Origin: Minisyncoccota bacterium
GTDB lineage: Bacteria > Patescibacteriota > Minisyncoccia > JBAYJV01
Direction: 5' to 3'
Assembly: GCA_041664925.1 (NCBI GenBank)
Contig: JBAYJV010000002.1
Coordinates: forward strand, 8,302-72,301
Length of the DNA: 64,000 nucleotides
Numbering within the stretch: position 1 is the stretch's first letter; every line of letters starts with the position of its first letter. The position numbers and the translations under genes are program-made. Below the pieces are notes generated by a model. The model did no database searches. It saw nothing but the letters and a program-made list of their open reading frames with translations, and had not been told where the DNA came from. Positions 5,519 to 56,594 of the stretch are shown piece after piece.

Positions 5519-5715
5519 AAATTTATCGAAGTAAAAATTTATCGAAGTCGGACTTCGATAAATTTGGCTGTTGAGGTCTGACCTCAACACTATAAGAAAA
5601 AGCGTAAAAGAGATTATTATTAAAAATTAATGTGCGGAGGTTCGTTCTTCGCACTTTTTATTTTTATAATATTTTTTTGTGGTAAAATAGAATATTAACT
5701 TGGTAATTTAAAAAT

Positions 5716-6321: not shown

Positions 6322-6445
6322 TATCTGAAACAATAGAGGCAGACTTGGGACTTTTTTGTATATTTATACAAAATTTACGGAGGACGGACCTCCGTAAATT
6401 AAAAAAATCTCCCGCAACTTTATGCGGGAGTGATTTTCTATATTT

Positions 6446-7228
6446 CTAAGTACTAGTAAGAGCTTGAGAGAACATTTGAGAAGCTCTAATAACGTAGGTT
6501 TTCGTTGCTTCTATGTCGAGATCATATTCGGCATTGCGAAGGCGTCCCTGAGCATCAATGCTCAACTCAGGGAATTCTTCGACAAGTGGTTGGACAAGAC
6601 CAAGGGAATCAGGTCCTAGTCCGCCAGCGACGCCAAGACCAATATGCCAGTTTTGCCTTTTGATCTCACGAAGGATTTCACGCGCTCGTTCAGTGTCAAA
6701 GGGCTTACCGAGACCGCCACTTGGATCGAGCAAAATATCATTAATGAGATTAGCGTCAATGTAAGGACTAAGCCTTTCTACGATGCCCTGTGGCCCGCCA
6801 GCGGTTTCAATAGCTTTTTGTCCAATCTGCAACACAATTCGTGGAACAAATCCAACGTATTCTCGATACTGTTTCATCATTCGAATATCTGGCCATGCAA
6901 GATTGAGCTGGAAACCACCAAAATTTGATCCGGCAAGTCCTCCAATACCAAGTAAATCAGCGAGAACTGAATCTTCTCGACCTTCTTCGGTGCTGAAATG
7001 AACAAGATTTACTACTCGTTTGTCGGCTAGAAAAATAGGATTCATTACTGGCGGATCTGGCATTTGCTTTGCCCATTGGGGTTTTGTATTAATGCCACGG
7101 ATTGATTTCCATGTAACAAGCACGCCGACCATCAATTTGCGATTACCGTTTTCTGGCAATACGCTCAGCGCAGCCCTCACTTCGCTTGGTTTTGTGATGC
7201 CCGTGATCCCAATGTACGGTTTTCTCAT
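6446..7228 (-). CDS. TIM-barrel-like protein, possibly phosphoribosylanthranilate-isomerase-like; higher-GC cassette gene
   Basis: 260 aa with IGITGI.., LMVGVLV and DPSGGLGKPFD motifs reminiscent of PRAI/TrpF (GGTGxxFDW). Preceded by the conserved leader and SD (7229-7290). Followed by hairpin + T-run terminator (6399-6440). Confidence 0.45.
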   Translation of the reverse strand: MRKPYIGITGITKPSEVRAALSVLPENGNRKLMVGVLVTWKSIRGINTKPQWAKQMPDPPVMNPIFLADKRVVNLVHFSTEEGREDSVLADLLGIGGLAGSNFGGFQLNLAWPDIRMMKQYREYVGFVPRIVLQIGQKAIETAGGPQGIVERLSPYIDANLINDILLDPSGGLGKPFDTERAREILREIKRQNWHIGLGVAGGLGPDSLGLVQPLVEEFPELSIDAQGRLRNAEYDLDIEATKTYVIRASQMFSQALTST

Positions 7229-7290
7229 TTATCCTCCCTTAGAGATTTTTAACGAACTTTAGTGAGTTTAAAAGCTCTTAGGTCCCGGTT
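7229..7290 (-). promoter_or_regulatory. Conserved ~55-nt 5' leader, instance a (serves 6446-7228)
   Basis: mRNA sense: CCTAAGAGCTTTTAAACTCACTAAAGTTCGTTAAAAATCTCTAAGGGAGGATAA-ATG. Confidence 0.5.
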
Positions 7291-7364
7291 TGCCGGGACT
7301 GTATTTTTATTTATTTTTTAAGAACTGTTTTTATCCTAACAAATTATTGCAAAAAGTCAAGGAC

Positions 7365-7393
7365 ATATGTGGGAGGCTCAGCCTCCCACATAT
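7365..7393. repeat. Extended GGAGG-loop-CCTCC palindrome (ATATGTGGGAGGCTCAGCCTCCCACATAT), left flank of small-membrane-gene cassette
   Basis: Counterpart ATATGTTGGAGGTGAGACCTCCAACATAT at 7871-7899 on the right flank. Same family at 20978-21005, 21049-21079, 21130-21158, 6366-6386, 44221-44245 and elsewhere. Confidence 0.5.
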
Positions 7394-7550
7394 TTTTGTT
7401 GACATTTATGATATTGGATGGTAGGATTTAGAAAGGAAGAAGTCCCGATAGGCCCTGCCTACCGGCAGGCAGGCGGGAGAAGATTGGGCTTTGGGGGGAG
7501 CAGGGTCCGCCTTCGCAATGCCTGCCTATCGGCAGACAGGGCTTCGGCGG

Positions 7551-7610
7551 GACTTAAGATTTCTTAAGTCTCATCGAGTTCGACAAAGAAATCTAAAGGA
7601 GGATGATAGA
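7551..7610 (+). promoter_or_regulatory. Conserved leader instance c (serves 7611-7859)
   Basis: GACTTAAGATTTCTTAAGTCTCATCGAGTTCGACAAAGAAATCTAAAGGAGGATGATAGA-ATG. Confidence 0.45.
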
Positions 7611-7859
7611 ATGTTCGAGATGGTTTTTGTCATGTGGCTACAGTTAGCACTTGGTCTTTATGTATTGGGATGGATGTTTTATGTTATCTTAAGATTGGTT
7701 GGCGCTATTGCGCCTTGTCCTAGCCTTGGAATAGTGAATGACCTCGTATTGTTTTCTGCGTTGTCACTTTCAATTCTCTTAGTAGTTCTTTCTTTAATTT
7801 GGTGCAGAATCATAGAGCCCATAATTGAATGGCGCGATAGAAAAAAGCATCAATACTAA
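7611..7859 (+). CDS. Small membrane protein (82 aa, 2 TM)
   Basis: An internal ATG 6 nt after AAGGAGG is preferred over the 7491 start, which overlaps a repeat hairpin. The conserved leader lies upstream. Confidence 0.5.
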   Translation: MFEMVFVMWLQLALGLYVLGWMFYVILRLVGAIAPCPSLGIVNDLVLFSALSLSILLVVLSLIWCRIIEPIIEWRDRKKHQY

Positions 7860-7974
7860 GCCTAGTCAATATATGTTGGAGGTGAGACCTCCAACATATT
7901 TTATTCTATTCTTGACTTTTTTTGGAAAAATAGTAGGATAAGGGAAGGAGGAAGTCCTTCGACTTTGCTCAGGA

Positions 7975-8029
7975 CCTAAGAGCTTTTAAGCTCACAAAAG
8001 TTCGCTAAAAATCTCTAAGGGAGGGCTGT
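7975..8029 (+). promoter_or_regulatory. Conserved leader instance b (serves 8030-8449); near-identical to instance a
   Basis: CCTAAGAGCTTTTAAGCTCACAAAAGTTCGCTAAAAATCTCTAAGGGAGGGCTGT-ATG. Confidence 0.5.
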
Positions 8030-8449
8030 ATGGCGCGAGGAGTGAAGTGGTTCGGATTGACTCAGTTCGACGAAGTCATTGAGAAAAAAGATTTGGGAAA
8101 ACTTAGCATTGTTGCTTTAGCTGAAGGAAGAAAGATATTAGGAAGAAGCATACAAGGTTCTAATGTGTTTGGTATCCCAGTTGATAAGGATAACGTCATA
8201 TTTAGGTACATGAAGGGTGAAAAATTCGATGTTGTTATTCGGTACAGACGAGTTATTCGACAAGTTAGGTTAGTGGCACATGATCGTCTTAGTCTCTTTA
8301 GCGTTAGAAGCATGGCTCTAAAAGCACTTGGCAAGTCTTCTGAAATACTGGTTTTAGTCTTAGAAGATGATCAAGGAAGACGCATTTACATCAATTCTAA
8401 GTTTGCTATGTTATTTAGGCCATTACCTTCCGAAAAGAAAGCGAAATAG
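8030..8449 (+). CDS. Hypothetical protein (139 aa)
   Basis: ORF with the conserved leader CCTAAGAGCTTTTAAGCTCAC...TCTCTAAGGGAGG 6 nt upstream. A stem-loop + T-run terminator follows at 8466-8498. Confidence 0.5.
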   Translation: MARGVKWFGLTQFDEVIEKKDLGKLSIVALAEGRKILGRSIQGSNVFGIPVDKDNVIFRYMKGEKFDVVIRYRRVIRQVRLVAHDRLSLFSVRSMALKALGKSSEILVLVLEDDQGRRIYINSKFAMLFRPLPSEKKAK

Positions 8450-8597
8450 TTTTCAAGCAAATCAAGACTCGGCACAGACGCCGGGTCTTTTTTTTTATTG
8501 TTAATGTAATCCTCCTACGCTCCAACTAGCCGGAGCTTCGGAAGGATGTAAAACTTTCTAAAACTCAATCAATTCGTTAAGAAAGTTTAACAAACAC

Positions 8598-8626
8598 TTG
8601 ATTTTTGGATTGGAATGTGGTATAAT
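8598..8626 (+). promoter_or_regulatory. Sigma-70-like promoter TTGATT-N17-TATAAT
   Basis: CACTTGATTTTTGGATTGGAATGTGGTATAATGG, upstream of the 8688 gene. Confidence 0.45.
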
Positions 8627-8687: not shown

Positions 8688-9434
8688 GTGAGGAGGAAAA
8701 AAAGAACGGCGAAGTATTCAGGAAGTTGCGTCTATGTGGCGCCCGGCTTCGTTGTGAGGCTGAGCGGCACATTTGGGATAGCAGATCATGAGCCTTTCAA
8801 GGTTCTTGAAGTCGTCCGTCGGTATGGTGCCGTCGACAAGGGGAAGACGCGCCAGCGGCCAGTACTTCGCCTTCGCGGTCTCGAGACTGGCAAGCTTGAA
8901 TCTTGCGACAACGGATTCGTTGTCGAAGTGCTTGAGCGCCAGACGCTTCCCGTCGGACTTCCGGAGAACTATTTCCGGAATCTGGGCTACGAATGGGACA
9001 CATTCTACGAGAAGAAAGGAAGAGGTGTTTGGACCGGCAACCTGGGCTATATGATCGCTGTGGTCATGGCGACGCTTCCCATGCATCTTCCGCGACCGAC
9101 TTGCGACATCGAGCGCCTCTGTGATCTCTACATGAAGCAAAAGGCGGGATTCATCGAAGTCCCCGACTTTGGGGATTTGGAAGATCTCTTGGATGATCCG
9201 CGCGTGACGGTTCACGCGAAACCGTTCCGTGAGTGGGTCAGGAAGAACGCTTCCCGATTCATGGTGACGGTGGCGGAGCTGGAAGAAAGGGCGACGAAGA
9301 GAGAAACCGAGAGCAAAACAAGATTCCAAGAGGATTATTGGAATGGCCTCGAGGCAGACGAGAGGCTGATCGAAGAGAAGTTTCCTGAGGAGGGAAACGA
9401 AGCAGTGATTCCGAGCTGTCCGATAGGAGGATAG
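8688..9434 (+). CDS. Hypothetical protein, strongly GC-elevated (~55% vs ~34% background)
   Basis: GTG start 6 nt after AAGGAGG. A TTGATT-N17-TATAAT promoter is at 8598-8626. A stem-loop terminator CCCCGGCAGAACAGTCTGTCGGGG + T-run is at 9437-9478. Confidence 0.55.
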   Translation: MRRKKRTAKYSGSCVYVAPGFVVRLSGTFGIADHEPFKVLEVVRRYGAVDKGKTRQRPVLRLRGLETGKLESCDNGFVVEVLERQTLPVGLPENYFRNLGYEWDTFYEKKGRGVWTGNLGYMIAVVMATLPMHLPRPTCDIERLCDLYMKQKAGFIEVPDFGDLEDLLDDPRVTVHAKPFREWVRKNASRFMVTVAELEERATKRETESKTRFQEDYWNGLEADERLIEEKFPEEGNEAVIPSCPIGG

Positions 9435-13655: not shown

Positions 13656-13671
13656 ATTTTTCTCCTTTATT

Positions 13672-13751
13672 TTGTTTTAAGAACTGATATGAGTCTATCA
13701 TATACACATAATTTGTCAAGAAAATCTTACGAAGTCGGACTTCGTAAGATT
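13672..13751. repeat. 75-80-bp direct repeat copy 1 (promoter module TTGACA-N17-TAGACT on minus strand + CGAAGTCGGACTTCG hairpin)
   Basis: Near-identical to 14193-14272. Each copy precedes a minus-strand gene. Each is also paired with a copy of terminator AAAAAAATCCACGCACTTTCTTATGCGTGGGTTTT (13286-13325 and 13763-13800). Confidence 0.6.
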
Positions 13752-13849
13752 GTTTGTAAGATAAAAAAATCCACGCACTTTCTTATGCGTGGGTTTTTGA
13801 TTTCTTTTATTTCTCTTATTTCTCTTTAGAGGATTGATTCATGTTTCGA

Positions 13850-14179: not shown

Positions 14180-14192
14180 CCCTTCCTCCTTA

Positions 14193-14272
14193 TATTTTAA
14201 GAACTGATATGAGTCTATCATATACACATAATTTGTCAAGAAAATCTTACGAAGTCCGACTTCGTAAGATTT
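14193..14272. repeat. 75-80-bp direct repeat copy 2
   Basis: TTAAGAACTGATATGAGTCTATCATATACACATAATTTGTCAAGAAAATCTTACGAAGTCCGACTTCGTAAGATT. One substitution relative to copy 1. Confidence 0.6.
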
Positions 14273-14338
14273 TTTAAATAAACAATTGACATTAAAATTA
14301 AGTTTTGTTAGAATATTGTCAGTACCAAAGGAGGCGTT

Positions 14339-18559: not shown

Positions 18560-18706
18560 GACATTTTCTGTCAACTTTTTTCACAAAATCATGAAAACAG
18601 TTGATTTTTTATGTTAAATATGCTATAATAGATAGTAGAGAGAGGTTGGGATTTAAATAAAGAAAACTAAATGAAGCCCCGCACCAGAGCATAGCACGGT
18701 GCGGGG

Positions 18707-18757
18707 TGTAAGAGCTTCTAGTCTTACTACGTTCGACAAGAATCTCTAACAGGGGGT
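18707..18757 (+). promoter_or_regulatory. Conserved leader instance d (serves 18758-19102)
   Basis: GTAAGAGCTTCTAGTCTTACTACGTTCGACAAGAATCTCTAACAGGGGGTATG-ATG. Confidence 0.45.
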
Positions 18758-19102
18758 ATGATGAGAAAGAGAGCTTTGTTTAAGCCACGCAATCCGAATC
18801 TCACAGAACGAGAATTCGTTCAGGAGTGGAATGATGTTCTGAGAGAGCGACATTCCAGTTTCCATCTTCAGTACGGTGGGTGGAATCCCAGACAGGGAAA
18901 GGAAATGCGCTGGTGCGATATTTGGAACTTCCCAAACGGGTGGTTCATCGGCTCAAGACTCAGAGGCGATCTTCTGTTGGTGATTGACGAGGATTACACA
19001 CAGGATGTCATCGATGCTCTCGTTGAGGGCAATCTGGCGGAGCGGCTCGATCCAGTCACCGGCGAACCCTTGGTTGAAAAAGTTCGAGAGGCGGCGAAGT
19101 AG
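18758..19102 (+). CDS. Hypothetical protein (114 aa), GC-elevated cassette gene
   Basis: Conserved leader GTAAGAGCTTCTAG...GTTCGACAAGAATCTCTAACAGGGGG upstream, preceded by the CCCCGCACC...GGTGCGGGG hairpin. Terminator GAGGCGGCGAAGTAGCGCGCCTC + T9 at 19083-19124. Confidence 0.5.
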   Translation: MMRKRALFKPRNPNLTEREFVQEWNDVLRERHSSFHLQYGGWNPRQGKEMRWCDIWNFPNGWFIGSRLRGDLLLVIDEDYTQDVIDALVEGNLAERLDPVTGEPLVEKVREAAK

Positions 19103-20977: not shown

Positions 20978-21158
20978 AAAAATCGGAGGCTCAGCCTCCG
21001 ATTTTCTACAACTGGCAATGGTTTAAACAATTCAATAAAAAAAACGAGATATGTGGGAGGCTCAGCCTCCCACACATATGTTAGTTTTCTGCGAAGTATT
21101 CAATAATCAAGTCGAAAGATTGAATAGATAAATATTTGGAAGTCTCACTTCCAAATAT
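20978..21158. repeat. Three consecutive GGAGG/GGAAG-loop-CCTCC/CTTCC palindromes in one intergenic region
   Basis: AAAATCGGAGGCTCAGCCTCCGATTTT; ATATGTGGGAGGCTCAGCCTCCCACACATAT; AATATTTGGAAGTCTCACTTCCAAATATT. Confidence 0.5.
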
Positions 21159-21286
21159 TTTCAATTACCTTAATTTATTGACATTGGTGTTTTAATGTGA
21201 TAGATATAGACATAGTACCGTAAAAACAAAAATTTGTCTTTTGGCGGCTTGTTGCCAAAGTTCATAAGAAATCCAAAGGAGGAAGA

Positions 21287-23068: not shown

Positions 23069-23316
23069 TTCTATCCATATTTTTCGTTATTTGAGGCATT
23101 ATGCCCCTTTTTTTATGTTGTGGACATTTATCTATTGACTCTACCTGAAATAAGAGTATAATTGTCATACATTGTTTTTTGTGTTGTAAAACATGAAAAA
23201 CAGATGTCGTGCTCTCTGAACCCCTCTGCTAAAGCTTTTTCCCGTAAAAGGGACAACTTAGTTAAGGTTATCTGAGAGTAGGTCGATAAATTTAACTAAC
23301 ACAAGTTTCAATTACA

Positions 23317-23595
23317 ATGAACAAAAAGCTTTATGTAGGAAATCTTTCCTACAACACTACAGACAAGAGTTTGGAAGAGCATTTCTCACAAGCTGGTACC
23401 GTTGAATCTGCTGCTGTGATCATGGATCGCATGTCAGGCAGATCAAAGGGATTCGGTTTTGTTGAAATGGCATCAGACGAGGAAGCAAAGAAAGCCATCG
23501 AAATGCTTAATGGCAAAGAATTAGACGGTCGCGCCTTAAAGATTGATGAAGCAAGGCCTCCAAAAGAGAGACCAGCTTTCAAAAGAGAATTCTAA
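23317..23595 (+). CDS. RRM-type RNA-binding protein
   Basis: RNP2 LYVGNL and RNP1 KGFGFVEM. Size is 92 aa. TTGACT-N17-TATAAT promoter at 23145-23173 implies a ~140-nt 5'UTR with no SD. Confidence 0.8.
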   Translation: MNKKLYVGNLSYNTTDKSLEEHFSQAGTVESAAVIMDRMSGRSKGFGFVEMASDEEAKKAIEMLNGKELDGRALKIDEARPPKERPAFKREF

Positions 23596-24154: not shown

Positions 24155-24453
24155 TCATTTTTTTTTGTTTCGTTGCTTGCCCGTTCGAAGCCTAAAGGCG
24201 AAGGAGGGTAGGGTTGTAATGTTGTCTGTCTCCTGCCTGACGGCAGTCAGGGCAGGCAGGAACCATTGACATTTACCACAATTATTATAGAATGGTGAGT
24301 AGTTCTTGGAAAAATCAAAATAATGTAATCCGCCTACGTCTTTCGATAGATTCATTTCATTTCCATAAATGGACTCAAGACTACGGCGAGATGTAAGTTT
24401 TTCTATTTTTCGTCTATGACTCAAAAAGAAAGAACTAACAAAGGAGGGACAAA

Positions 24454-25074
24454 ATGAGTCCATGGTTGGGAGCAATTCTTGTGGGAGTTGGTATTTGTGT
24501 GATTTCTTGGCTGATTATTAATTGGGCAGTGGGTAAGTCTCAACATTTCGGCGATAGCTTTGGAAAGATATTTTCATCTGTAATCATAGGTGTTATAGGA
24601 ACCCTAATCTTTTTCTTGGCTTCGACAGTTTATATTTCTGGACCGGTAGTTGATACTCGGAATAATCTTATCACTCACTACGGAACAAACACGCATATTT
24701 TGAGATGGTCTGAGGAAGCCAAGGCTTATGAAAGTGGATTTTTGAAATCCATTCCTATTTACTCGCAAACATTCAGAGTCATTATTGACCCAGCGATTGC
24801 TAAGCTACATCTTGAGATTACGGTTGTTCCGGGAGAAGACGACGAATCAATCATGGCGCAATATGAGAGAATTATTTCTCATGGGGACACTCTTGAGGCG
24901 TATATCAGGCGACTGACTTTCTTGTACGAAACAAGAGGGCTTTCCCAGAATCTTGATAACTTCCCAAATGACTACATCAAATTTCTTGAGCCTTTGTTAA
25001 AAGCATCGGGAGTGAAGGGACTTAGAATCTTTATAAATGGAAACGCAGTTCCCATCGTTACGCAAATTGAGTAA
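24454..25074 (+). CDS. Hypothetical N-terminally membrane-anchored protein (2 TM then soluble domain)
   Basis: AAAGGAGGG RBS. Promoter TTGACA..TATAGAAT at 24268-24297. Confidence 0.5.
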   Translation: MSPWLGAILVGVGICVISWLIINWAVGKSQHFGDSFGKIFSSVIIGVIGTLIFFLASTVYISGPVVDTRNNLITHYGTNTHILRWSEEAKAYESGFLKSIPIYSQTFRVIIDPAIAKLHLEITVVPGEDDESIMAQYERIISHGDTLEAYIRRLTFLYETRGLSQNLDNFPNDYIKFLEPLLKASGVKGLRIFINGNAVPIVTQIE

Positions 25075-25236: not shown

Positions 25237-25386
25237 AAATTGTAAATTAGTCATGATAACTCAAAGCTCAAATCTTAAAACTCAAAACAAAAACTTAAAA
25301 CCATTAAACTATTTAGCTTTGAATTTTGAGCTTTGAACTCTAAGCTATGGCTTTGACCTTTAACATTTAAGCTTTAAGTTATTTTC
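25237..25386. repeat. Low-complexity AAAACTCAAAGC-word tract; inverted partner at 26990-27120 flanking pduL-ackA
   Basis: AACCATTAAACTATTTAGCTTTGAATTTTGAG (25290-25325) versus CTCAAAATTCAAAGCTAAATAGTTTAATAGTTTTAAG (27041-27078). Similar tracts at 38500-38660, 49440-49530 and 57780-58010. Confidence 0.45.
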
Positions 25387-26984: not shown

Positions 26985-27111
26985 TAATTCTTTATAAACT
27001 CAAAGCGCAAAGTTCAAAACTCAAAACTACAACTCAAAATTCAAAGCTAAATAGTTTAATAGTTTTAAGTTTTCCTGCCTGTCGGCAGACAGGTGTTTTG
27101 AGTTCTAAGAT

Positions 27112-30128: not shown

Positions 30129-31028
30129 TCAGGAGCATGTTGCTGCTTCCAGCTGTCCCAGTAAACGGCTGTACTTTGGATGAGCTTCAAGCCACATTCT
30201 AATCTTTTCAAGCGATTCTTTTTCAATCTGACGAGCTCTTTCGCCAGAAATCCCATGCTGTCTGCCTATTTCCTCGAATCCTTGTTCTTCTCTTGAAGGA
30301 TTCATTCCGTAACGCGCCCTTAGGACGGCTGCTTCCCTTTGAGAAAGACCCAAGACCATCGCTTCAGAAATAAGCCTTCTTATAGAACTGTTTCTGATCT
30401 CTTCTCCGACAACTTTTTCTGGAGAAAAAGTTTCATCAATAATACCATTAACTTCAGCGGTCTCATCAGGGTCACTTTTAATGGGCGTGTCTAAAGACAG
30501 CACATCAAAAACTCCAAGAGCGGCGATTAAAGTTTTGGGATTAATCTTATTCTTTCTAGCAAAATCTACTATCGCTATTTCGGTATTACTATTGAGTCTT
30601 GCGTCGGGATGTTCTCTTGCGAATTTGACGATTGACCACTTAATATTTTGAGGCAATCTAATAGGAGAGGATATATCGTGAAGTTTTCTCCCAATCGTAT
30701 CGTCAATCCACCAAACTGCGTAAGTTGATGGTTTGCTGCCTTTTGTTGAGTCGAATTTTGCCGATGAATCGTAAAAAACACGAAGCAAAACTAAATAACA
30801 GTCATGAAGTAAATCAGCAATAGTTTCTTCGTCATTAAAGGTTTGGATCTTTACGAAAATTCTCTTAAGGATTAGCTTGGTCATGCTTAAAACTAAGCGT
30901 GCACAAGCTTCTTTATCGCCATTTCTGGCCTTTTTGGCTAGTTCTAATTGTTCTTCTTTTCTTTGAATTTCTGTGAACAAGCTTTTTTCTGGCATCTGGA
31001 CATGACTCTCAATCGTCGCTAGTGGCAT
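30129..31028 (-). CDS. Sigma-70 family RNA polymerase sigma factor (divergent paralog 1)
   Basis: Region 2 (STYAVWWIDDTIGR) and region 4 HTH (LSQREAAVLRARYGM...EEIGRQHGISGERARQIEKESLEKIR). Confidence 0.75.
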   Translation of the reverse strand: MPLATIESHVQMPEKSLFTEIQRKEEQLELAKKARNGDKEACARLVLSMTKLILKRIFVKIQTFNDEETIADLLHDCYLVLLRVFYDSSAKFDSTKGSKPSTYAVWWIDDTIGRKLHDISSPIRLPQNIKWSIVKFAREHPDARLNSNTEIAIVDFARKNKINPKTLIAALGVFDVLSLDTPIKSDPDETAEVNGIIDETFSPEKVVGEEIRNSSIRRLISEAMVLGLSQREAAVLRARYGMNPSREEQGFEEIGRQHGISGERARQIEKESLEKIRMWLEAHPKYSRLLGQLEAATCS

Positions 31029-31267
31029 TGAACATCCTCCTTTAGAATTTCCTTCTGAATGTAATGAAGAGTAGAAATTCTTAAGCCCTTCCGTAGCTTC
31101 GGCTTGCCCTGCCTACCCTGCCTACCGGCAGGCAGGCGGAGCGTAGAAGGGTAATAATTTTTTAACACTAGACTGTATTTTCATTATTAAAGAACAATAC
31201 TTGCCAACAATACTAACATATTTTTATAAAAAAGCAACCCTCCTACGCACCAGTATAAAAACAATTA

Positions 31268-31385: not shown

Positions 31386-31478
31386 AAAAGGAGAGGGAAG
31401 CTTTCTTCCCTCTCTGGTCCCGCTTGCCATGTAGCGAGACGCCCCGAGCACTCCGCAAAGGAGGTTCGACAACGGTGC
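31385..31478 (-). ncRNA. Candidate small RNA D (promoter + intrinsic terminator unit)
   Basis: Minus-sense TTGACA (31507-31512), 16-nt spacer, TACAAT (31485-31490), then ~90 nt ending in GGAGAGGGAAGAAAGCTTCCCTCTCC + T-run (31390-31416). A DnaA-box-like TTATCCACA abuts the -35. Confidence 0.3.
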
Positions 31479-31533
31479 TTCTTTATTGTACCAAACACCT
31501 AGCCTCTGTCAAGAGATATTGTGGATAAGTTAA

Positions 31534-31896
31534 TCAAAGCGTCTTTAGAAAAGAACGAAACTTAAACTTAAAAAAGTATCTTGCGAAGAAAACGCTGATT
31601 GCGACGGGAATTGCTAGGCCGAGAAATGGCGAAACAAGGACAACTGTTCCTCCAAGAATCGTTTTATTGGTGTAGTTTTCCTTCGTAAGTAAATAGATAG
31701 CAAGATCGAATGTAATGTACATCGCAGCGGCTAGATTTAACAGAAGACCGAAGCCGATTGTCGTAATCATTTTCCCTGAAAAACCTGTAAATTGAAGTAT
31801 GATAACCAAAAGAACCGTTTCTATAATCAATGACGGAAAAAGAACTTTATAAATAAACTCTCGCAAAAACTGATCATTCTTATCCTGCGTCTTCAT
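31534..31896 (-). CDS. Small integral membrane protein (120 aa, 3-4 TM); leader-class cassette gene
   Basis: Conserved leader on minus strand (31897-31960) with SD AGAGAGGTG. Preceded further upstream by a CCTGCCTACCGGCAGG hairpin. Confidence 0.5.
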   Translation of the reverse strand: MKTQDKNDQFLREFIYKVLFPSLIIETVLLVIILQFTGFSGKMITTIGFGLLLNLAAAMYITFDLAIYLLTKENYTNKTILGGTVVLVSPFLGLAIPVAISVFFARYFFKFKFRSFLKTL

Positions 31897-31960: not shown

Positions 31961-32266
31961 TTGTCGAAGGGTTAGACCCCGGCTTGCCCTGCCTACCGGC
32001 AGGCAGGCGGGACTACACTTGCAACTCTTTCATTATAAAACAAAAAGAAGGAAAGTCAAATGTAAACCTGTTAACCGTTAAGCGTAAACCGTGAACCGCA
32101 AACCTCGCATTTCGCGATTAACGAATAACGACTAATTTTCTTGCCCTTCCGAAGCCCTGCCTACCGGCAGGCAGGCTTGTGCGTAGGAGGGTTGCATTTT
32201 AATCAAAATGTGCTAGTATCGTTGGCAGTTATCATGGTTCTTTAATATTAACAAAGGAGGGGGGGG

Positions 32267-33256
32267 ATGATTGGACAACTAGAAGTTCTCTATGCTTATT
32301 TCAGAGAAATTAGCAGAACTCCTCTTTTAACCAAAGAAGAAGAAATTGAATTGGCTAAAAAAATTGCTCAAGGAGACAAAGAGGCAAAAGAAAAATTTAT
32401 TAGAGCTAATCTGGGATTAGTTGCTTCAATTGTACAAAGATATAGAGTAAGAGATTCTCATTTAAGTTATTTTGACTTGATCCAAGAAGGAACATTGGGC
32501 TTAATTAGGGCGGTTGAAAAATTTAATCCTTGTAAAGAATGTAGATTTGCTAATTATGCCGCTTGGTGGATTAGACAATCGGTCTTGGTGGCAGTAGCAA
32601 AACATAGTAACAATATTAGATTGCCATGGGATGCAAGACGGTTGGTTTCCAAATTTACAAGAGAGAGTTCTGACGTAGGACTTAGTATGACTAACGGCGC
32701 GATGGCAGATTTTTGCAGAAAACACGCTGGAACCAATCGTAAGATACTAATCGCTGCTCTCGGGGCTTATAATAATATTGTGTGCTTGAATTTATCTATT
32801 GGCTGCGATGACAGTGATGCTATTGAAAGACAAAGCCTAAGAGAGATTCCTATTGAAGAGGATGGATTTGGAGATACCAATACCATAAAAATTGTTCTTG
32901 TTTCTCAAGAAGCAATTTCCTTGATGACCATAATTGGCGATGATGGAGATGCTCCCGAAGAGTATGTTTTAGGCGAGCAAAATCCTCAAGAAGATGAGCT
33001 CAGAAAATTGCGCAAAAAAGAAATCTTAGAAAAGGCGATGAATGCTGTTCTTAATTCTAGAGAAATAGATGTTCTCACCTTGCGATTTGGATTGGGAGAC
33101 ATAAAAGAACTAACTCTTCAAGAAGTAGCAGAGCAATATCATCTTTCTCGAGAAAGAATCAGACAGATTGAAAAAAATGCTCTTGAAAAAATTAAATGTT
33201 ATCTCAGAGCAGAATATGGAGAACGTATTCATGAATTAGCAAGATACCTTGTGTAA
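32267..33256 (+). CDS. Sigma-70 family RNA polymerase sigma factor (divergent paralog 2, with ~100-aa insertion between regions 2/3 and 4)
   Basis: Region 1.2/2 (LTKEEEIELAKKIAQGDKEAKEKFIRANLGLV...IQEGTLGLIRAVEKF...YAAWWIRQ) and region 4 (LTLRFGL...TLQEVAEQYHLSRERIRQIEKNALEKIK). Confidence 0.8.
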   Translation: MIGQLEVLYAYFREISRTPLLTKEEEIELAKKIAQGDKEAKEKFIRANLGLVASIVQRYRVRDSHLSYFDLIQEGTLGLIRAVEKFNPCKECRFANYAAWWIRQSVLVAVAKHSNNIRLPWDARRLVSKFTRESSDVGLSMTNGAMADFCRKHAGTNRKILIAALGAYNNIVCLNLSIGCDDSDAIERQSLREIPIEEDGFGDTNTIKIVLVSQEAISLMTIIGDDGDAPEEYVLGEQNPQEDELRKLRKKEILEKAMNAVLNSREIDVLTLRFGLGDIKELTLQEVAEQYHLSRERIRQIEKNALEKIKCYLRAEYGERIHELARYLV

Positions 33257-33465
33257 AATGGTAAGCGGTCACTAAAGAATAGTGACCGCATTTATAATCC
33301 TTGCTTTTTCTTATAAATGTGTTAATATGGGGACCTAGAATAGTTCTTTAACTTAATGTAGTCCTACGGTCACGAATAAAGTCCTCCTTCACTAAAGTTA
33401 CGGCGGGACGTAAGAATCTTCATTTCTCGTAAACTCGAAAGAATCTTCTAACGGAGGTGGGAAAA

Positions 33466-34320
33466 ATGTTTGAATGGCAAAAAGGAATTAGAAGCTATCT
33501 TAAAGAAATTGGCAAAATTCCTCTTTTAACTAGAGAACAAGAATTTGCTTTAGCTGAAAGAGTTGCCAACGGAGACAAAAAGGCAACAGAAGAATTTGCT
33601 CTAGCGAATTTGCGATTAGTCGTTTCAGTCGCAAGAAACATTCATTATTATTCTCCCACGCTCAGCATGCTCGATCTGATTCAAGAAGGCAATATTGGTT
33701 TAATGAAAGCTATCGAGAAATTCGATCGCCATAAAGGCTATAAATTCTCCACATACGCGAAATGGTGGATTTGGCAAGCGATTTTGAGAGCAATATCGGA
33801 TCATGGTAGAGACATAAGACTACCGTCTCATATACTTGAATCAATTCGCAAGGCTCAAAGGAAAATTTCTCAAGAGAAAGATAGAGAAGAGGATCCAAGA
33901 GATTTAGGAGAAATTCTTGAAGAAGACGGATTGAGCGATGCGAGTATTGTTGGGATTATCTCTGCTACTCGCGGAAGACTTTCTTTGGATGTTGAACTTG
34001 GAGAAGACGGAGAAACTTTTGAAGAATATGCTGATGGCAAGCAACCTTCTCAAGAAGATGAATTTAATGCATTGAGAAAAAGAGAAATCATAAAAGAGGC
34101 GATAAATGAGACTCTTGATGATAGAGAGAAGGATATTATTAACTTGCGATTTGGGATGGATGGGACAAAAGCATTAACTCTTAAAGAAATATCAGCTCTG
34201 CATGATATTAGTCGAGAAAGAATTAGGCAAATTCAAATAAAAGCTCTTAGAAAGATCGGACACTATATTGAAACAAAATATAGGGAGCAAATGACGGACA
34301 TAGAAAAAGCGTTTTTATAG
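33466..34320 (+). CDS. Sigma-70 family RNA polymerase sigma factor (divergent paralog 3)
   Basis: LLTREQEFALAERVANGDKKA...ANLRLVVSVAR...IQEGNIGLMKAIEKFD...YAKWWIWQAI and region 4 (INLRFGM...TLKEISALHDISRERIRQIQIKALRKI). ATG is 5 nt after GGAGGTGG. The ORF track used the GTG at 33457. Confidence 0.8.
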   Translation: MFEWQKGIRSYLKEIGKIPLLTREQEFALAERVANGDKKATEEFALANLRLVVSVARNIHYYSPTLSMLDLIQEGNIGLMKAIEKFDRHKGYKFSTYAKWWIWQAILRAISDHGRDIRLPSHILESIRKAQRKISQEKDREEDPRDLGEILEEDGLSDASIVGIISATRGRLSLDVELGEDGETFEEYADGKQPSQEDEFNALRKREIIKEAINETLDDREKDIINLRFGMDGTKALTLKEISALHDISRERIRQIQIKALRKIGHYIETKYREQMTDIEKAFL

Positions 34321-34377
34321 CAGTTGCTAAGGATTGGTTAAAACTTGACAATGGGTAAAATTCTGTTAGTATAGTAA

Positions 34378-34486
34378 ACAGGAGCGCAGAGGTGATTCTC
34401 GGCGTTCTCTTGACTCCATAACGCTCCATTGGGGAGTATCTTGGTGATTCACACGGAAGGGGAAGATGGCTTTCCCTTCCTTTTTG
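34378..34486 (+). ncRNA. Candidate small RNA A
   Basis: TTGACA (34345-34350), 16-nt spacer, TAGTAT. Then ~105 nt ending in GGAAGGGGAAGATGGCTTTCCCTTCC + T5. Shares the GCG(T)TCTCTTGACTC core with sRNA B. Confidence 0.3.
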
Positions 34487-34532
34487 TTATCTGCGTTTCT
34501 GAGTTAAGCGAAGATTACGCAAATAACAATCC

Positions 34533-34650
34533 TGAGCGAAGCTTGCCCTGAACTTAGTTGAAGGGTCGAAGAATTTATCCTGAGCGAAGTTTGCCCTGAA
34601 CTTAGTTGAAGGGTCGAAGAATTTATCCTGAGCGAAGTCGAAGGATCCTC
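34533..34650. repeat. Tandem repeat, ~54-bp unit x 2.2
   Basis: AATCCTGAGCGAAGCTTGCCCTGAACTTAGTTGAAGGGTCGAAGAATTT / ATCCTGAGCGAAGTTTGCCCTGAACTTAGTTGAAGGGTCGAAGAATTT / ATCCTGAGCGAAGTCGAAGG. Confidence 0.6.
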
Positions 34651-34684
34651 TTGACATAAAATAAAATTCTGTTAGTATTATATA

Positions 34685-34792
34685 CGAGAAACAAGAAAAA
34701 TGCTGGGTTGATACCCAGCGCTCTCTTGACTCACGTTCCATAGTGGAACGTTCCAATGGTTCGGAGAGGGAAGATGGCTTCCCTCTCTTTTT
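34685..34792 (+). ncRNA. Candidate small RNA B
   Basis: TTGACA (34651-34656), 16-nt spacer, TAGTAT (34673-34678). Terminator GAGAGGGAAGATGGCTTCCCTCTC + T5 (34764-34792). Confidence 0.3.
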
Positions 34793-34912
34793 ATTGACTC
34801 TGTTTTTGAATGAAATGAAAATTACAGAGTTAACAACCCCGCACCGTATTTACTTGTCCTGAAGCGAATTTATTCTGCTGCAGGATACTGGTGCGGGGTA
34901 TTTATCCTCTTG
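34793..34912 (+). repeat. Composite element copy 2
   Basis: TTATTGACTCTGTTTTTGAATGAAATGAAAATTACAGAGTTAACAACCCCGCACCGTATTTACTTGTCCTGAAGCGAATTTATTCTGCTGCAGGATACTGGTGCGGGGT. Confidence 0.5.
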
Positions 34913-34941
34913 ACATAGAATAAAGTTTTGATAACATAAAT

Positions 34942-35047
34942 ATTGAGGAAGGTAGCTCCTCACTCCCGGTGTCCTGGCGTCCTCCTGGTGGACGTCCTGC
35001 CACCCGCCGTGCGCTGGAGAGGGAAATAGTTTCCCTCTCCTTTTTTT
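34942..35047 (+). ncRNA. Candidate small RNA C (GC-rich)
   Basis: TTGACA (34909-34914) with a weak -10 (TAACAT). GC-rich body ...GGTGTCCTGGCGTCCTCCTGGTGGACGTCCTGCCACCCGCCGTGCGCTGG. Terminator GGAGAGGGAAATAGTTTCCCTCTCC + T8 (35015-35047). Confidence 0.3.
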
Positions 35048-35156
35048 ATTGAGTGCGTTCCTGAATTTATGAAGGAATACGCAATCAATAACCCCGCACC
35101 GTATTTACTTGTCCTGAAGCGAATTTATTCTGCAGCAGGATACTGGTGCGGGGTTT
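35041..35156 (+). repeat. Composite element copy 3
   Basis: TTATTGAGTGCGTTCCTGAATTTATGAAGGAATACGCAATCAATAACCCCGCACCGTATTTACTTGTCCTGAAGCGAATTTATTCTGCAGCAGGATACTGGTGCGGGGT. Confidence 0.5.
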
Positions 35157-35204
35157 ATTATTGTACTTCGGGGTTTACGCTCTGGTGCTGGTTTTTTTTA
35201 CAAT

Positions 35205-38455: not shown

Positions 38456-38675
38456 GAGTAAGTTTAAAACTCCTGCCTACCGGCAGGCAGGCAAAAGTCA
38501 AAAGTTAAAGCCACAGTTCAAAAATCAAAACTTTAGTAGCTCATAAGTTTTAAGTTATGGTTTTGCACTTTAAGCTTTGCGCTTTGAATTAAATACAATG
38601 AAATTAAGATTTAAACATTGTTTCGAGTTTCGGATTTAGAAATTCGAATTTAAGCAAGAGATTTTTAAAAGTATA

Positions 38676-44179: not shown

Positions 44180-44249
44180 AAAAAGTTTACTTGCGCAAAC
44201 TTCTTTTGACGGAAGAATGATTTACGGAGGTCCGTCCTCCGTAAATTTT

Positions 44250-47648: not shown

Positions 47649-48246
47649 ATACTTTTGTTTAATATTTTATGACAGGAAAACAGATCACTCGACCTTTAAA
47701 ACAAAAAAAGCTCACAAAAAAATGAGAGCTGTTAAACTAATCTATTTCCCCTCCTATCATGATGAAATGTTTCGATGAAATACTTAAGAGAATATTTTAT
47801 CAAATCCTGAAGGTATTTTTCAATGTGGATAACTCATTATTATGTTTCCGAGGTAACGAGGAATTACATAATAATGACCCCGGCACGCCGGGGTTATTGA
47901 TTGCGTAGTTTCTCATTTTATTCGAAAACGCGACACCCTCCTTCACTAAAGTTACGGACGGGTTATTGACTCTGTAATCTTTCGCATAGACTTAAGAATA
48001 GAGTCAATAAAATGAGGGCCTGTTTTTCTTACAGACCCTCGCAATGCATTAGCCCACTATAGAGGTTATTGTGACTCCACTCTTATGATTATACTAAAAA
48101 ATTAATCGTTTGCAATATCTTGGAATTATCCGCCTTAACTAAAGTTACGGCGAGATTATTAACTGTGTAATCTTCGCCTTGCTCAGAAACGCAGTCAATA
48201 AAAAGAGAGCCCGCGCACTTTGCACGGGCTCCTACTTTGAAACTCT

Positions 48247-49287
48247 CTACTGAACGGTTACTTCGTACCGTCCAGTCACCTCCTCTCCGTTAAGAGAGGC
48301 GGTAACCGTCCATGTTCCGGAGTGGAAGAACTTGACCTTGATGTATTGGCCAAAATCTCCCCACACCTTCACGATCTCGAAGTCATCGCCGAGAACCGGC
48401 GACGAATCGCCGCAGCACCAAGCGAAGTCCCAAGAGATCTTCGTCTTGTTGCAGCCACAGCCACAATCTGGCTCCGATGGGCAAGGGACGATACCTTGAA
48501 TTCCGACGCTCTGTTCATCGAAGACATTTCTGCACTGGTCGCATTCATCGAAACACGGCCAGTCGTTGAAGAGAACTGCGATCTCGAATTCATCGTATGC
48601 CGAGACGCATCCTCTCTCCGGTTCCAGACGGTCCAATACGATCGAATCGCATGGGTCATCGCACGGATCGTCGGGACAAGGCGGCGTTGGGTCGCAGCAC
48701 TCCTCAACCTTTAGGGTTGCGGTCTTATATGCGACCGTTCCCGCATCGTCCCGTACCGTCAGGTAAATGGTCTTCGTTCCGGCCGATCCGAATGTGAAAG
48801 TCGTGGACGAGTCGGAACTCACGTGGCCATCACTTGAGGACCATTCATAGGTAATCGGGCGACTGTGTTCGATAACCGCCGATACCCGCGTCGGGATGTT
48901 CTTGCAGACAGGATTGAGGTCGATGTTGATAGACGTAATCCTGACGAACGGCTTCTCTCCGACGGTGATGGTAATCGAGTCGCTTGCCGTCTCGGTGCCA
49001 CACATCCCGCTGTTGGTCACCGTAACCGTTGCAGTGTAGGTGCCAACGTTTTGGTAGACGTGGATTGGGTTCTCTTCGGAACTTGTTCCACCGTCTCCGA
49101 ATGACCATGCGCGCGTCTTATCTGCACAAGTAGTTACGGCACTGAACGCGACCGTCAAGGGCGCGTAGCCGCTGGTTCGATCAGCCGAGACTTCGACTGT
49201 GGGCGGAACTGTCATACATCCGCCCAGACCGAGCGCCAGTACTACGACCAGCGCGCCAAGCAGTACAAACATCCGTCCTCGCTTCAT
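48247..49287 (-). CDS. Lipoprotein with PKD domains and Cys-rich C-terminal domain (GC-rich island)
   Basis: Lipobox LALGLGGC. PKD: GYAPLTVAFSA...WSFGDGGTSSEENPIHVY..GTYTATVTVTN. C-terminal EECCDPTPPCPDDPCDDPCD...CGCGCN...WCCGD. Confidence 0.7.
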   Translation of the reverse strand: MKRGRMFVLLGALVVVLALGLGGCMTVPPTVEVSADRTSGYAPLTVAFSAVTTCADKTRAWSFGDGGTSSEENPIHVYQNVGTYTATVTVTNSGMCGTETASDSITITVGEKPFVRITSINIDLNPVCKNIPTRVSAVIEHSRPITYEWSSSDGHVSSDSSTTFTFGSAGTKTIYLTVRDDAGTVAYKTATLKVEECCDPTPPCPDDPCDDPCDSIVLDRLEPERGCVSAYDEFEIAVLFNDWPCFDECDQCRNVFDEQSVGIQGIVPCPSEPDCGCGCNKTKISWDFAWCCGDSSPVLGDDFEIVKVWGDFGQYIKVKFFHSGTWTVTASLNGEEVTGRYEVTVQ

Positions 49288-49561
49288 TCTGAACCTCCTT
49301 AGGTTCGTATTTGTTTTTTTTGTTTGTGTACATAGGGAATCTTAACTTCCCTTTCTACTATCCATTATAGCATATTAGAACACTAAAGTCAAGGATTTTG
49401 GTGAAATATTTATATTTGTGAACTTAATATGTAAAAAGAAACAATAAATAATATAACTTAAAATTCAAAACTCAAAGCGCAAAACAACAATTTAAAACTT
49501 AAAACTATTTAATTTTTATTAACTATGCAAACAAAAACCCCGTATTGTTTGATACGGGGAA

Positions 49562-50488
49562 TTAGTGATCATTAGTGATTACCCAAAGAACTTTTGGTAA
49601 AACGCTAATCTTGATTGTATTCGTTGGCAATTCAATCGGTTCGCCGTCAACTTGAGCGGAAAGGATGTCATCGTCTTCGTCTTCATCTTCTATAATAATC
49701 TTTATTTCTTTTCCTTCAAATGTGTGTAAACGCGGCAATCTGTCAAGTTTTCCCGTTGTCATTTGAATGACATATTTGAGTCTTTCTTGAAGCGATGGCA
49801 GATCCTCAATTACAAGCAGATTCAAGATGCCATCGGAAATACTGCCCTGAAGATTGATTGGAAAATAAGAACCTTCGCGCTTGCCGTTGTGAACGCCGAC
49901 AAAAAAGGTTTCACCTTCAAAAGCAACTCTACCGTCAATCTCAATTCGCACCTGTCTAATATTGGGATTTTGCAATTCATTAATCATTGGCAGGCCATAG
50001 CGAAGTTCTTTGAAAGGCAATCTTCGAAAGATTGGATGTTTGTGAGCCAAATGATCAATATCTGCATCAATGCCGATACTAAAGACATTCAGGAAGATAA
50101 GCTTATCAACTAGCCCGACATCAGCTTGAATTCTTGCGCCAGACATAAGCGCCTCAAGAGCTTTCTTGGGATTTTGGGGCATTCCAAGAGAAGCAATCGC
50201 AAAATCATTGGATGTGCCAAGCGGCAGAACTCCGAGAGCGACATCTGTACCCATAAGTTCTCGGCCAATGAGATTGACAGTGCCATCGCCGCCACAAGCG
50301 ACAATGATTTTTTCACCTTTTAAAATTGCTTCCTGACAAGCTTTTTGCGCTTCTTCTTGATTATTCGTAATCCTGAAATCAAAGGCGATGCCGCTCTTTT
50401 TAAGCAACGGCAAGATTCTTTTCAAAAATATTTGACAACCAATACTTTGAGATGCGTTTCTATTAATTATAAAGAACATTGAGAACAC
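49562..50488 (-). CDS. Diacylglycerol/lipid kinase catalytic-domain protein (YegS/DgkA-like)
   Basis: ...KIIVACGGDGTVN..., GVLPLGTSNDFA. Conserved leader upstream on minus strand (50489-50556). Confidence 0.65.
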   Translation of the reverse strand: MFSMFFIINRNASQSIGCQIFLKRILPLLKKSGIAFDFRITNNQEEAQKACQEAILKGEKIIVACGGDGTVNLIGRELMGTDVALGVLPLGTSNDFAIASLGMPQNPKKALEALMSGARIQADVGLVDKLIFLNVFSIGIDADIDHLAHKHPIFRRLPFKELRYGLPMINELQNPNIRQVRIEIDGRVAFEGETFFVGVHNGKREGSYFPINLQGSISDGILNLLVIEDLPSLQERLKYVIQMTTGKLDRLPRLHTFEGKEIKIIIEDEDEDDDILSAQVDGEPIELPTNTIKISVLPKVLWVITNDH

Positions 50489-50556: not shown

Positions 50557-51174
50557 AACCGGAACAGAGGAGGACAACTTCATTAGCTTATTTAGTCTTG
50601 ACGAGGGCGGACTTTATTTACGACCGTAGGACTACCATCATCTCCACTCATATCTTACTCTTTTGGAGTTTGGTTGCAATGGATAAAACAATTACCCGTC
50701 TACGCTGTCTCCTACGCTAAACCTGCCTGCCCTGACTGCCGTCAGGCAGGCGTCAGGCAGGGCTATGGATGACCGAGGAAAGCTTCGGCAGGGTTATTGA
50801 ATCTGTAAATCTTTCATTATGCTCAAGAACAGAGTCAACCCTGACACCAGAGCAAAGCTCGGTGCAGGGTTTGATTTTCGTTTCCCTTCATAAATTCAGG
50901 GACGAAAATCAATTAAAAAAAGGGACAGAATGAGATTCCTAGGTAAATCTCACCTGTCCCTTGCGCTAGCTAGGCTGCGAAGTTGGCATCACTCTTGCGC
51001 GAGAGCAACGCTTTCCTCGTAGGTTTTGACTGCGGCTCTCTGGAATGAAAGCGCAATCGGACTGAAAGAACTGTGCCATCTCCATACGAGGGAGTTGGCG
51101 GTACTCTACTTTTTCCTGTGCTCTATACGATGGAGCGACAGGGCGACAAACTTACTTGGTTAGACTACCAGATT

Positions 51175-56426: not shown

Positions 56427-56594
56427 CCCTCCTTAGGATGACCTAACTACCTAAATCCTACCAGATTGTATTGATGATGTCAATATTTTTACCATTTTTC
56501 TTGACAAAAGTAAAAAACAGGAGTATGATGTTGGTAGTTCTATAAAAAGATAGGTCTTGTTTCACTCGGCAAAAAAGCTAACAAAGGAGGAAGC

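Follow-up and report, generated by a model that had tools for sequence, protein, structure and literature searches.

The 64,000 nt stretch analysed here (the window; Minisyncoccota bacterium, contig JBAYJV010000002.1, positions 8,302 to 72,301) carries a repeated leader directly upstream of genes of diverse function. The leader is very probably a folded 5′ untranslated region (5′UTR) element under selection. It folds as two adjacent hairpins, a GC-rich P1 with a variable interior and an AU-rich P2, and the Shine-Dalgarno sequence (SD) emerges at the foot of P2. An Rfam search of the leaders, at the gathering score and at E ≤ 5, returned no family, and no description of the element was found in the full-text literature searched; it is an RNA element without an Rfam counterpart or a description in that literature. 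As to its function, we see an even chance that it is a propagating, structured, cis-acting leader that presents the SD while insulating and stabilising the mRNA.

Copies of the leader and their fold

The original prediction, made by reading the DNA alone, had placed the same leader before at least seven genes. It is present at all seven, far above chance. The 3′ 19-mer of the leader, with ≤3 mismatches, matches five times in the window against 0.01 expected, and an nhmmer profile built from the seven copies regained all of them (E 1e-12 to 1e-16) and added copies before the open reading frames (ORFs) 30129-31028 (-) and 33457-34320 (+). This sequence-only profile was superseded by a covariance model, which, run with filters off, detects 11 copies across the window, with scores of 39-69 bits. 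The seven claimed copies score 46-69 bits, and the others lie at 24385-24448 (+), 31032-31092 (-), 33402-33461 (+) and, lacking an SD, 8540-8594 (+), so that more copies exist than had been claimed. A 'weaker variant' at 21255-21286 was not seen by the covariance model even at E < 10 with filters off, and has only the SD context in common with the leader. No copies were found in the ~16 kb of flanks just outside the window, and a scan of the window for tRNA and tmRNA genes found none.

Outside the window, the leader pattern matches two Candidatus Roizmanbacteria metagenome-assembled genomes (MAGs; species-representative genomes) and 41 metagenome contigs, about 33 of which are genuine. The matches at L003, L004, L011, L017, L021, L026, L018, L044, L028 and L031 were dropped as chance pattern matches, by eye and on their low model scores.

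From the foot upward, P2 consists of a 3 bp foot (C-Y-U/A-R-G), an invariant A·A mismatch, a 9 bp helix, an A-rich bulge, a helix of 3-4 bp, a near-invariant 2 × 2 UC/UC internal loop and a variable cap. In the foot, C-Y-U, lying just 5′ of AAGA, pairs with A-R-G, which comprises the first G of the SD and the bases that flank it on the 5′ side. The outer helix of this fold was recovered by RNAalifold from a structure-blind MAFFT alignment of 38 copies, as 12 bp with compensatory change at seven pairs; 96.3% of cells are paired, and covariation scores 0.357, compared with 0.117 when columns are shuffled and 0.121 or less when partners are slid. When 46 distinct real copies are aligned to the model, 94.3% of cells are paired and 16 of the 17 P2 pairs show compensatory change, with a covariation of 0.539 (shuffled columns 0.154, slid partners no more than 0.118). 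The same P2 architecture is seen in most minimum-free-energy folds of single sequences. The Y and R of the foot were left free in the search pattern, yet they are complementary in every genuine match, and among 17 copies found without any pattern this pair is U-A, A-U, C-G and G-C. As thermodynamic z-scores are weak, the structural case rests on covariation.

Those 17 pattern-free copies form an unbiased set for conservation counts:
A·A mismatch: conserved in 17/17
A21: conserved in 16/17
A92: conserved in 17/17
Internal loop, 5′ UC: U in 15/17, C in 13/17
Internal loop, 3′ UC: U in 17/17, C in 15/17

In 42 of the 46 folds, a gap of 0-3 nt separates the 3′ strand of the GC-rich P1 stem from P2, and the GC hairpins that the original prediction had named are indeed present directly 5′ of the leader. 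The interior of P1 is, in the window, either a short loop (UCGACUUUGCUC type) or a set of nested GC palindromes, and in many metagenome copies a conserved four-helix domain of ~70 nt, in which 16 of 20 pairs covary (score 0.596 vs 0.202). The UC/UC-type loop occurs in P1 as well as in P2.

Signals around the leader and the genes served

The leader is closely tied to translation starts. A called ORF of at least 30 codons begins 4-12 nt past GAGG in 42 of the 46 unique copies. The SD is typically AARGGAGGUGA, and its core, GAGG(UGA), begins at the 3′ foot of P2; the AUG and all that follows the first G of GGAGG stay single-stranded in the consensus structure, as they do in most folds of single sequences. 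Leader genes match the anti-SD complement over 7.1 nt on average, and the other genes of the window over 3.9 nt. Because strong SDs are uncommon in the window, and the other genes that have them carry unrelated 5′UTRs, the leader is more than local SD context. The concern that the motif might be the mere SD context of most genes was checked and did not hold, most genes having a weak SD or none.

In the window, the genes served are two sigma-70 paralogs, a diacylglycerol (DAG) kinase/YegS-like enzyme, an operon with radical-SAM and DUF3800 genes, and several small membrane or unknown proteins. Elsewhere they encode HU, YbaB/EbfC, an RRM protein, S21, L7/L12, adenylate kinase (Adk), TatA and sigma-70 factors, along with DUF5320, DUF3276, DUF378, YtxH-like and SPW proteins. 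Leader genes are therefore diverse, and often encode abundant small proteins. A riboswitch finds no echo here, as the served genes are functionally diverse rather than members of one shared pathway and no leader matches a known ligand-binding core in Rfam. Nor does the fold match an RNA thermometer of the ROSE or fourU kind, since pairing around the SD is confined to the first G of GGAGG and the bases 5′ of it.

Sigma-70-like -35/-10 matches lie upstream of every SD-bearing copy, those of leaders f and g being weak. The consensus is TTGACW-N16-17 followed by TAGGAT, TATAAT or TAGAAT, and 20-120 nt separate the end of the -10 box from the modelled leader; leaders a, b and c have the -10 box TAGGAT in common. 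The position of the SD-bearing copies downstream of these matches is why the leader is read as 5′UTR. The YbaB and S21 copies on contig Ga0209515_10003637 have nearly the same sequence across ~125 nt of 5′UTR, with identity beginning ~15-20 nt past differing -10 boxes and ending exactly at the SD, which indicates that the repeated unit is the 5′UTR and not the promoter. An intrinsic terminator or attenuator does not fit P1 or P2 either: on the sense strand YUAAGA comes after P1 and the SD after P2, so that neither has a U-run behind it.

That the genes share one expression signal, as first proposed, is supported. Of the two natures suggested for that signal, the translational enhancer goes in the right direction: what is conserved is a predicted transcribed 5′UTR with an SD at its end. 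A target of one of the sigma paralogs, or an alternative-sigma promoter in general, does not agree with the sigma-70-like matches upstream, nor with the base-pair covariation within the block, which is the mark of a folded strand rather than of a promoter.

At 7229-8029, an inverted pair of leaders, 7229-7289 (-) and 7968-8028 (+), flanks a third complete unit (promoter 7399-7427, leader 7546-7606, gene 7611-7859). The features of this region and its borders are:
6446-7228 (-): gene a, the gene of leader a; 260 aa, without a Pfam match; own terminator at 6409-6430 (-)
7229-7289 (-): leader a, P2 hairpin and SD (CCUAAGAGCUUUU...AAAAUCUCUAAGGGAGG); covariance model 64.4 bits, and fold; 87% identical to leader c
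7282-7299 (-): P1 of leader a, GC hairpin GUCCCGGCAAACCGGGAC, adjoining P2
7333-7360 (-): predicted promoter of gene a, sigma-70-like (TTGACT-N16-TAGGAT), 43 nt ahead of the modelled leader
7365-7393 (no strand): 13 bp palindrome with T-runs, between the divergent promoters of a and b
7399-7427 (+): predicted promoter of gene b, TTGACA-N17-TAGGAT with TG extension
7440-7555 (+): P1 of leader b, outer stem AAGUCCCG/CGGGACUU around nested GC-rich palindromes (CCTGCCTACCGGCAGG family)
7546-7606 (+): leader b, P2 and SD, outer helix AGAUUUCUU/AAGAAAUCU; model 67.7 bits
7611-7859 (+): gene b, 82 aa membrane protein; terminator at 7871-7899
7912-7939 (+): predicted promoter of gene c, TTGACT-N16-TAGGAT
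7954-7975 (+): P1 of leader c, GUCCU-UCGACUUUGCUC-AGGAC
7968-8028 (+): leader c, P2 and SD; model 60.3 bits, and fold
8030-8449 (+): gene c, 139 aa; terminator at 8464-8489
8540-8594 (+): complete P1 and P2 copy without SD or ORF; model 43.5 bits

The near-identity of ~90% that had been noted for copies a and b is found between the first and third of the listed copies, whereas the first and second are 70% identical; the other leader pairs of the window are 48-78% identical. The copy without an SD sits between the terminator of gene c and the promoter (8598-8626) of gene 8688-9434. At locus L036 the leader also precedes a protein that resembles the gene c product, a likeness seen by eye and unscored. 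The palindrome at 7365-7393, which has relatives at 7871-7899 and 21049-21077, looks like a bidirectional terminator or insulator.

The remaining copies of the window and the genes they precede are:
18700-18759 (+): leader d, before 18758-19102; promoter 18601-18629; P1 is CCCCGCACC..GGUGCGGGG
24385-24448 (+): leader k (new), before ORF 24454-25074; promoter 24266-24293; model 38.8 bits
31032-31092 (-): leader i (new), before the sigma-70-family gene 30129-31028 (-) (Pfam); model 67.4 bits
31900-31960 (-): leader e, before 31534-31896 (-); promoter 32032-32059 (-); model 46.3 bits
33402-33461 (+): leader j (new), before the sigma-70-family gene 33457-34320 (ATG at 33466; Pfam); model 61.7 bits
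50484-50544 (-): leader f, before the DAG-kinase/YegS-like gene 49562-50488 (-) (Pfam); model 69.2 bits
54783-54843 (-): leader g, before the small ORF 54605-54787 (-); model 65.5 bits

Gene d (18758-19102) is the first of the operon with the radical-SAM gene and the DUF3800 gene, and the small ORF of leader g is followed after 12 nt by a PKD-domain gene, 53546-54592 (-), the two forming a two-gene unit. The description of the leader genes as promoter-gene-terminator units holds for several monocistronic promoter-leader-gene-terminator units and not for all of them. A terminator of their own is present for 6 of 10 (a, b, c, f, i and k), d and g head operons, and e and j are ambiguous.

The window has three sigma-70-family paralogs within 4 kb, at 30129-31028 (-), 32267-33256 (+) and 33457-34320 (+). 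The outer two have the leader, and the middle one, 32267-33256 (+), has a strong SD but a different 5′UTR.

In the original prediction these genes were morons, that is, independently acquired cassettes, with the motif possibly serving as an alternative-sigma promoter. We regard this as very improbable, even though several monocistronic units have their own promoter and terminator (6 of 10 units), two leader genes are elevated in GC, and the TAGGAT box recurs at a, b and c. The setting is that of a cellular genome rather than a phage or prophage: the window encodes pyruvate:ferredoxin oxidoreductase (POR), acetate kinase, a PTA-like protein, Obg, pyrophosphatase, the three sigma-70 paralogs, and ABC/MacB, FtsX, HlyD, VWA and lamin-tail-domain proteins. 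Bro-N, present in a single protein, is the sole domain with a phage association that was seen. The window is part of a 192 kb metagenome contig from a cellular, probably Roizmanbacteria-like genome. A scan of a viral contig collection gave only two matches, both of 70 nt and uninspected, and no convincing copy; these (L046 and L047) were set aside on that length alone, which equals that of the chance-rejected metagenome matches L018 and L044. Independent acquisition also sits poorly with the core genes HU, YbaB, S21, L7/L12, Adk and TatA, all of which have the leader in relatives. The GC content does not follow the leader. The window is 38.5% G+C overall, with a median gene of 37.3%, and not the ~34% that had been given; leader genes range from 34 to 51% G+C, and only two of ten, 6446-7228 (45.6%) and 18758-19102 (50.7%), stand out, whereas the GC-rich genes 8688-9434 (54.5%), 48247-49287 (55.4%) and 51175-52107 (53.2%) are without it.

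A set of genes at 49-55% G+C (GC3 up to 64%) comprises 8688-9434, 48247-49287, 51175-52107, 53546-54592 and 55893-56426. Two are PKD-domain paralogs, the rest have no Pfam match, and none carries the leader; 53546-54592 does follow leader gene g, at a distance of 12 nt. These genes are likely to be foreign or recently acquired.

Several other repeats and RNA-like features were observed. A family of GC-rich palindromes, CCTGCCTACCGGCAGGCAGG, has about eight copies in this 38% GC genome. They are often nested in the P1 loops of leaders, others stand alone upstream of promoters, and as a family they behave like repetitive extragenic palindromic (REP)-type insertions. They are found at:
7444-7476
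7511-7543
24230-24262
31107-31139
31978-32010
32146-32178
38462-38494
50721-50753

Tandem or nested P1-type hairpins also occur at 34540-34650. Putative small RNA genes form three tandem units at 34340-35160 (+), with similar ones at ~31391-31512 (-) and 48014-48115 (-). In each, a strong promoter match (TTGACA-N16-TAGTAT with TG) precedes a body of ~45-80 nt that is unconserved between units and a strong intrinsic terminator (GGAGAGGGAAG..CUUCCCUCUCU and a U-run), followed by a long AT-rich hairpin (TTATTGAYTGCG...CGCARTCAATAA family) and then a P1-type GC stem. On the opposite strand these units mimic a P1-P2-SD leader, but without a downstream ORF; they have no Rfam match. An 86 nt segment at 13670-13755 is repeated with 95% identity at 14190-14275, 520 nt apart, and contains a palindromic hairpin of the bidirectional-terminator type, AAAATCTTACGAAGTCGGACTTCGTAAGATT, that recurs at several gene ends (also 5534-5564, 6370-6400, 21129-21159 and 44220-44247). 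An A-rich degenerate repeat (CAAAACTCAAAGC units) is found between genes or at gene ends at 25243-25315, 26996-27054, 49454-49512 and 57801-57859, and gave weak, spurious miRNA matches in a permissive Rfam search. The 5′UTR of gene 56595-57401 includes a weak match to Rfam RT-17 at 56490-56584 (+), scoring 27.7 bits where the gathering score is 40.4 (E 0.39), which is probably due to chance.

Spread of the leader and its proposed action

The leader is patchily distributed. HU has it in some Roizmanbacteria and lacks it in others, and in the leader-free loci HU has a short, different 5′UTR. Certain gene families recur with the leader in divergent genomes: HU in three, YbaB in three (proteins ~50% identical by eye) and DUF5320 in three. 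Between the DAG-kinase orthologues of the window and of L012, the coding sequence and promoter are kept while P1 and P2 differ; P1 is 22 nt in one and ~100 nt in the other, and P2 differs at about one third of positions and still folds. Near-identical copies within genomes, this turnover between orthologues and the patchy distribution together lead us to conclude that the element propagates and is homogenised within lineages.

In the leader-free Roizmanbacteria (L050-L057), the promoter region ~60-260 nt upstream of HU (e.g., L050 9740-10000) is highly conserved between genomes, with the elements GTCCC..TTTGATATAGATTGYTACARTAAGATATTT..TTGACAGGAC and a -10 box TAAGCT. Within the short HU 5′UTR of these genomes is a small hairpin (CUUAA-UC-AUAAG-UU-AAG), perhaps a shortened form related to P2.

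In the reading that we favour, the '55 nt leader' first described would be the 3′ half of a transcribed, structured 5′UTR module of ~70-190 nt. Its parts would follow in the order sigma-70-type promoter, short and often purine-rich start, P1, linker of 0-1 nt, P2, SD and start codon, the last of these 4-12 nt beyond the SD core, and the interior of P1 would range from a 12 nt loop to the conserved 70 nt four-helix domain or nested GC palindromes. The module would act in cis on the mRNA: the stacked P1 and P2 would keep a strong SD single-stranded, insulated from variable upstream and coding sequence, and would shield the 5′ region from RNases. The outcome would be a portable, high-expression translation-initiation unit for mostly monocistronic genes, moving within a lineage via recombination or gene conversion between copies.

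A number of observations weigh against this account. No leader copies occur in eight loci (142 kb) of other Roizmanbacteria and Microgenomates with ~90% identical HU. The RRM gene of the window (23317-23595) has no leader, and a ~150 nt 5′UTR (23163-23316) without a recognisable SD, while the gene of a similar RRM-domain protein in the Roizmanbacteria MAG L001 has one; the Adk gene just past the window end likewise has none (flank locus L059, a near-identical genome). Four of the 46 copies are without a called downstream ORF, and three of these also lack the SD (8540-8594 in the window, L009:1001 and L025:1034), one of them being inverted beside an apparent tRNA gene. Transcription start sites are placed from consensus matches only, and the search pattern itself imposed part of the sequence invariance of the metagenome set. 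P2 is marginally stable at 37 °C, with weak z-scores (-0.15 to -3.4), so that the stabilising and insulating role is one that we infer. Lastly, the near-invariant unpaired bases (A·A, A21, A92 and UC/UC) exceed what a passive hairpin needs, and point to a specific partner.

The conservation of these unpaired bases hints that the fold is recognised by a factor as well. Taken further, the fold would be an operator for a trans-acting factor, such as an RNA-binding protein, a small ligand or a small RNA, that reads A·A, the A bulge and UC/UC and opens or locks the 3 bp foot beside the SD, and the leader genes would be one post-transcriptional regulon, responding for example to growth rate, cold or stress. 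We consider this unlikely though well worth keeping in view. The unpaired bases are conserved as much as the paired ones or more, a UC/UC-type loop is shared by P1 and P2, P2 has the marginal stability to be expected of a switchable helix, two of the three sigma factors of the window have the leader, and the HU, YbaB and DUF5320 families recur with it. However, the conserved fold leaves the SD core free, there is no riboswitch-like conserved core that matches Rfam, and the gene set is heterogeneous and varies by genome, with RRM and Adk genes having the leader elsewhere and not here, and HU being variable. A motif scan for CsrA, Hfq and Csp nearby gave only the RRM protein 23317-23595, itself without a leader. 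The most far-reaching version, a hitherto undescribed multi-copy riboregulator of Candidate Phyla Radiation (CPR) bacteria in which one global factor, protein or metabolite, reads A·A, the A bulge and UC/UC to control a regulon of nucleoid, ribosome, RNA-binding and sigma functions while the RNA hops between genes, is doubtful. If true, it would mean a regulon rewired by movement of its operator rather than by evolving new operators.

Irregular hairpins before phage T7 genes (R1.1 type) are RNase III sites, and the lambda N leader is processed as well. P2 might similarly be an RNase III-type processing site, cleaved at its internal loops so that the 5′UTR is trimmed to just upstream of the SD, giving a mature mRNA of altered stability or translation. 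The geometry agrees, as P2 has ~17-21 bp with conserved internal loops directly 5′ of the SD, and P1 and P2 stack as a long quasi-continuous duplex; the fit is limited to that geometry, however, the P2 helix being AU-rich and interrupted, and we think such processing improbable.

A selfish, dispersed repeat of the kind of REP elements or miniature inverted-repeat transposable elements, whose hairpins are kept for recognition by a transposase as single-stranded DNA and whose position before genes and SDs is a by-product of target preference, would explain the patchy lineage distribution, the homogenisation within genomes and the fast replacement between orthologues. It would also accommodate the SD-less and inverted copies, the GC palindromes that are nested in P1 and occur elsewhere and in tandem arrays, and the wobble pairs, which leave the strand unproven (13 G·U against 8 A·C, no clear G·U excess). 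It is harder to reconcile with the orientation of 42 of the 46 copies to a called ORF at a precise distance, or with an SD flank that is part of a covarying helix. The limits of identity match transcript features (after the -10 box, and the SD) rather than terminal repeats or target duplications, there is no transposase among the window proteins scanned or annotated, and the same gene families recur across divergent genomes. This origin, too, has a low probability in our judgement.

Comparison with known systems

To our knowledge, the expression signals of CPR bacteria (Patescibacteria) are almost wholly uncharted, and most of these organisms cannot be grown. A 5′UTR structure backed by covariation is a handle on their translation control and mRNA stability. 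The leader is a candidate for Rfam, and in MAG annotation it can show where small genes truly begin. Standing ahead of many unrelated and often highly expressed genes, it would represent a natural, portable 'expression cassette' at the RNA level, copied between genes. Should the fold be read by a factor, a minimal genome would prove to have a large regulon at the post-transcriptional level.

Putative mobile promoters are highly similar upstream regions of 50-100 nt, at least 80% identical, that are found before non-homologous genes (Matus-Garcia et al. 2012, PMC3488235). The leader is like them in that near-identical upstream segments precede unrelated genes, the pairs a/c (87%) and YbaB/S21 on Ga0209515_10003637 (~125 nt) both reaching ≥80% over 50-100 nt, and in its spread within a lineage and to related genera. 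It differs in what is shared, which is the transcribed 5′UTR and SD, with -35/-10 boxes that differ between copies and identity that begins past the -10 box, so that the moved segment does not carry the promoter. Most leader copies are also below 80% identity and are united by structure rather than sequence, that is, by a covarying two-domain fold.

Dispersed palindromic repeats that are co-transcribed with genes include REP and BIME, ERIC, the Correia elements of Neisseria and the pneumococcal BOX and RUP. As with these, the leader consists of multi-copy intergenic hairpins with nested insertions in P1, homogeneity within genomes, a patchy distribution and possible effects on mRNA stability or processing. 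Like REP/BIME, it comprises short, imperfect, extragenic palindromes in many copies (11 in 64 kb, plus the separate 8-copy CCTGCCTACCGGCAGG family). REP elements have no fixed relation to translation starts, typically lie 3′ of genes and have a cognate transposase (RAYT), whereas the leader has strict orientation and spacing to the start codon, with 42 of 46 copies at ORF starts, and an SD inside a covarying helix; its identity limits show no terminal repeats or target duplications, and no transposase was found among the scanned or annotated proteins of the window.

The cis-regulatory 5′UTR RNAs of Rfam (riboswitches, ribosomal-protein leaders and thermometers) also have a covarying fold between promoter and start, a 3′ end at the SD and conserved unpaired bases. 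Unlike them, the leader matches no family, precedes dozens of unrelated genes, leaves its SD core exposed and has many copies per genome.

Among 5′ stabilisers and insulators are the aprE and ermC leaders of B. subtilis, the T7 gene 10 leader, RNase III sites and synthetic devices of the RiboJ type. The leader is similar to these in having stable structure upstream of a strong, exposed SD, in being a portable and context-independent unit, and in serving abundant proteins. In contrast to them, its P1 starts away from the predicted 5′ end, its fold is more elaborate and its loops more conserved than a stabiliser requires, and it is a natural multi-copy family in CPR bacteria.

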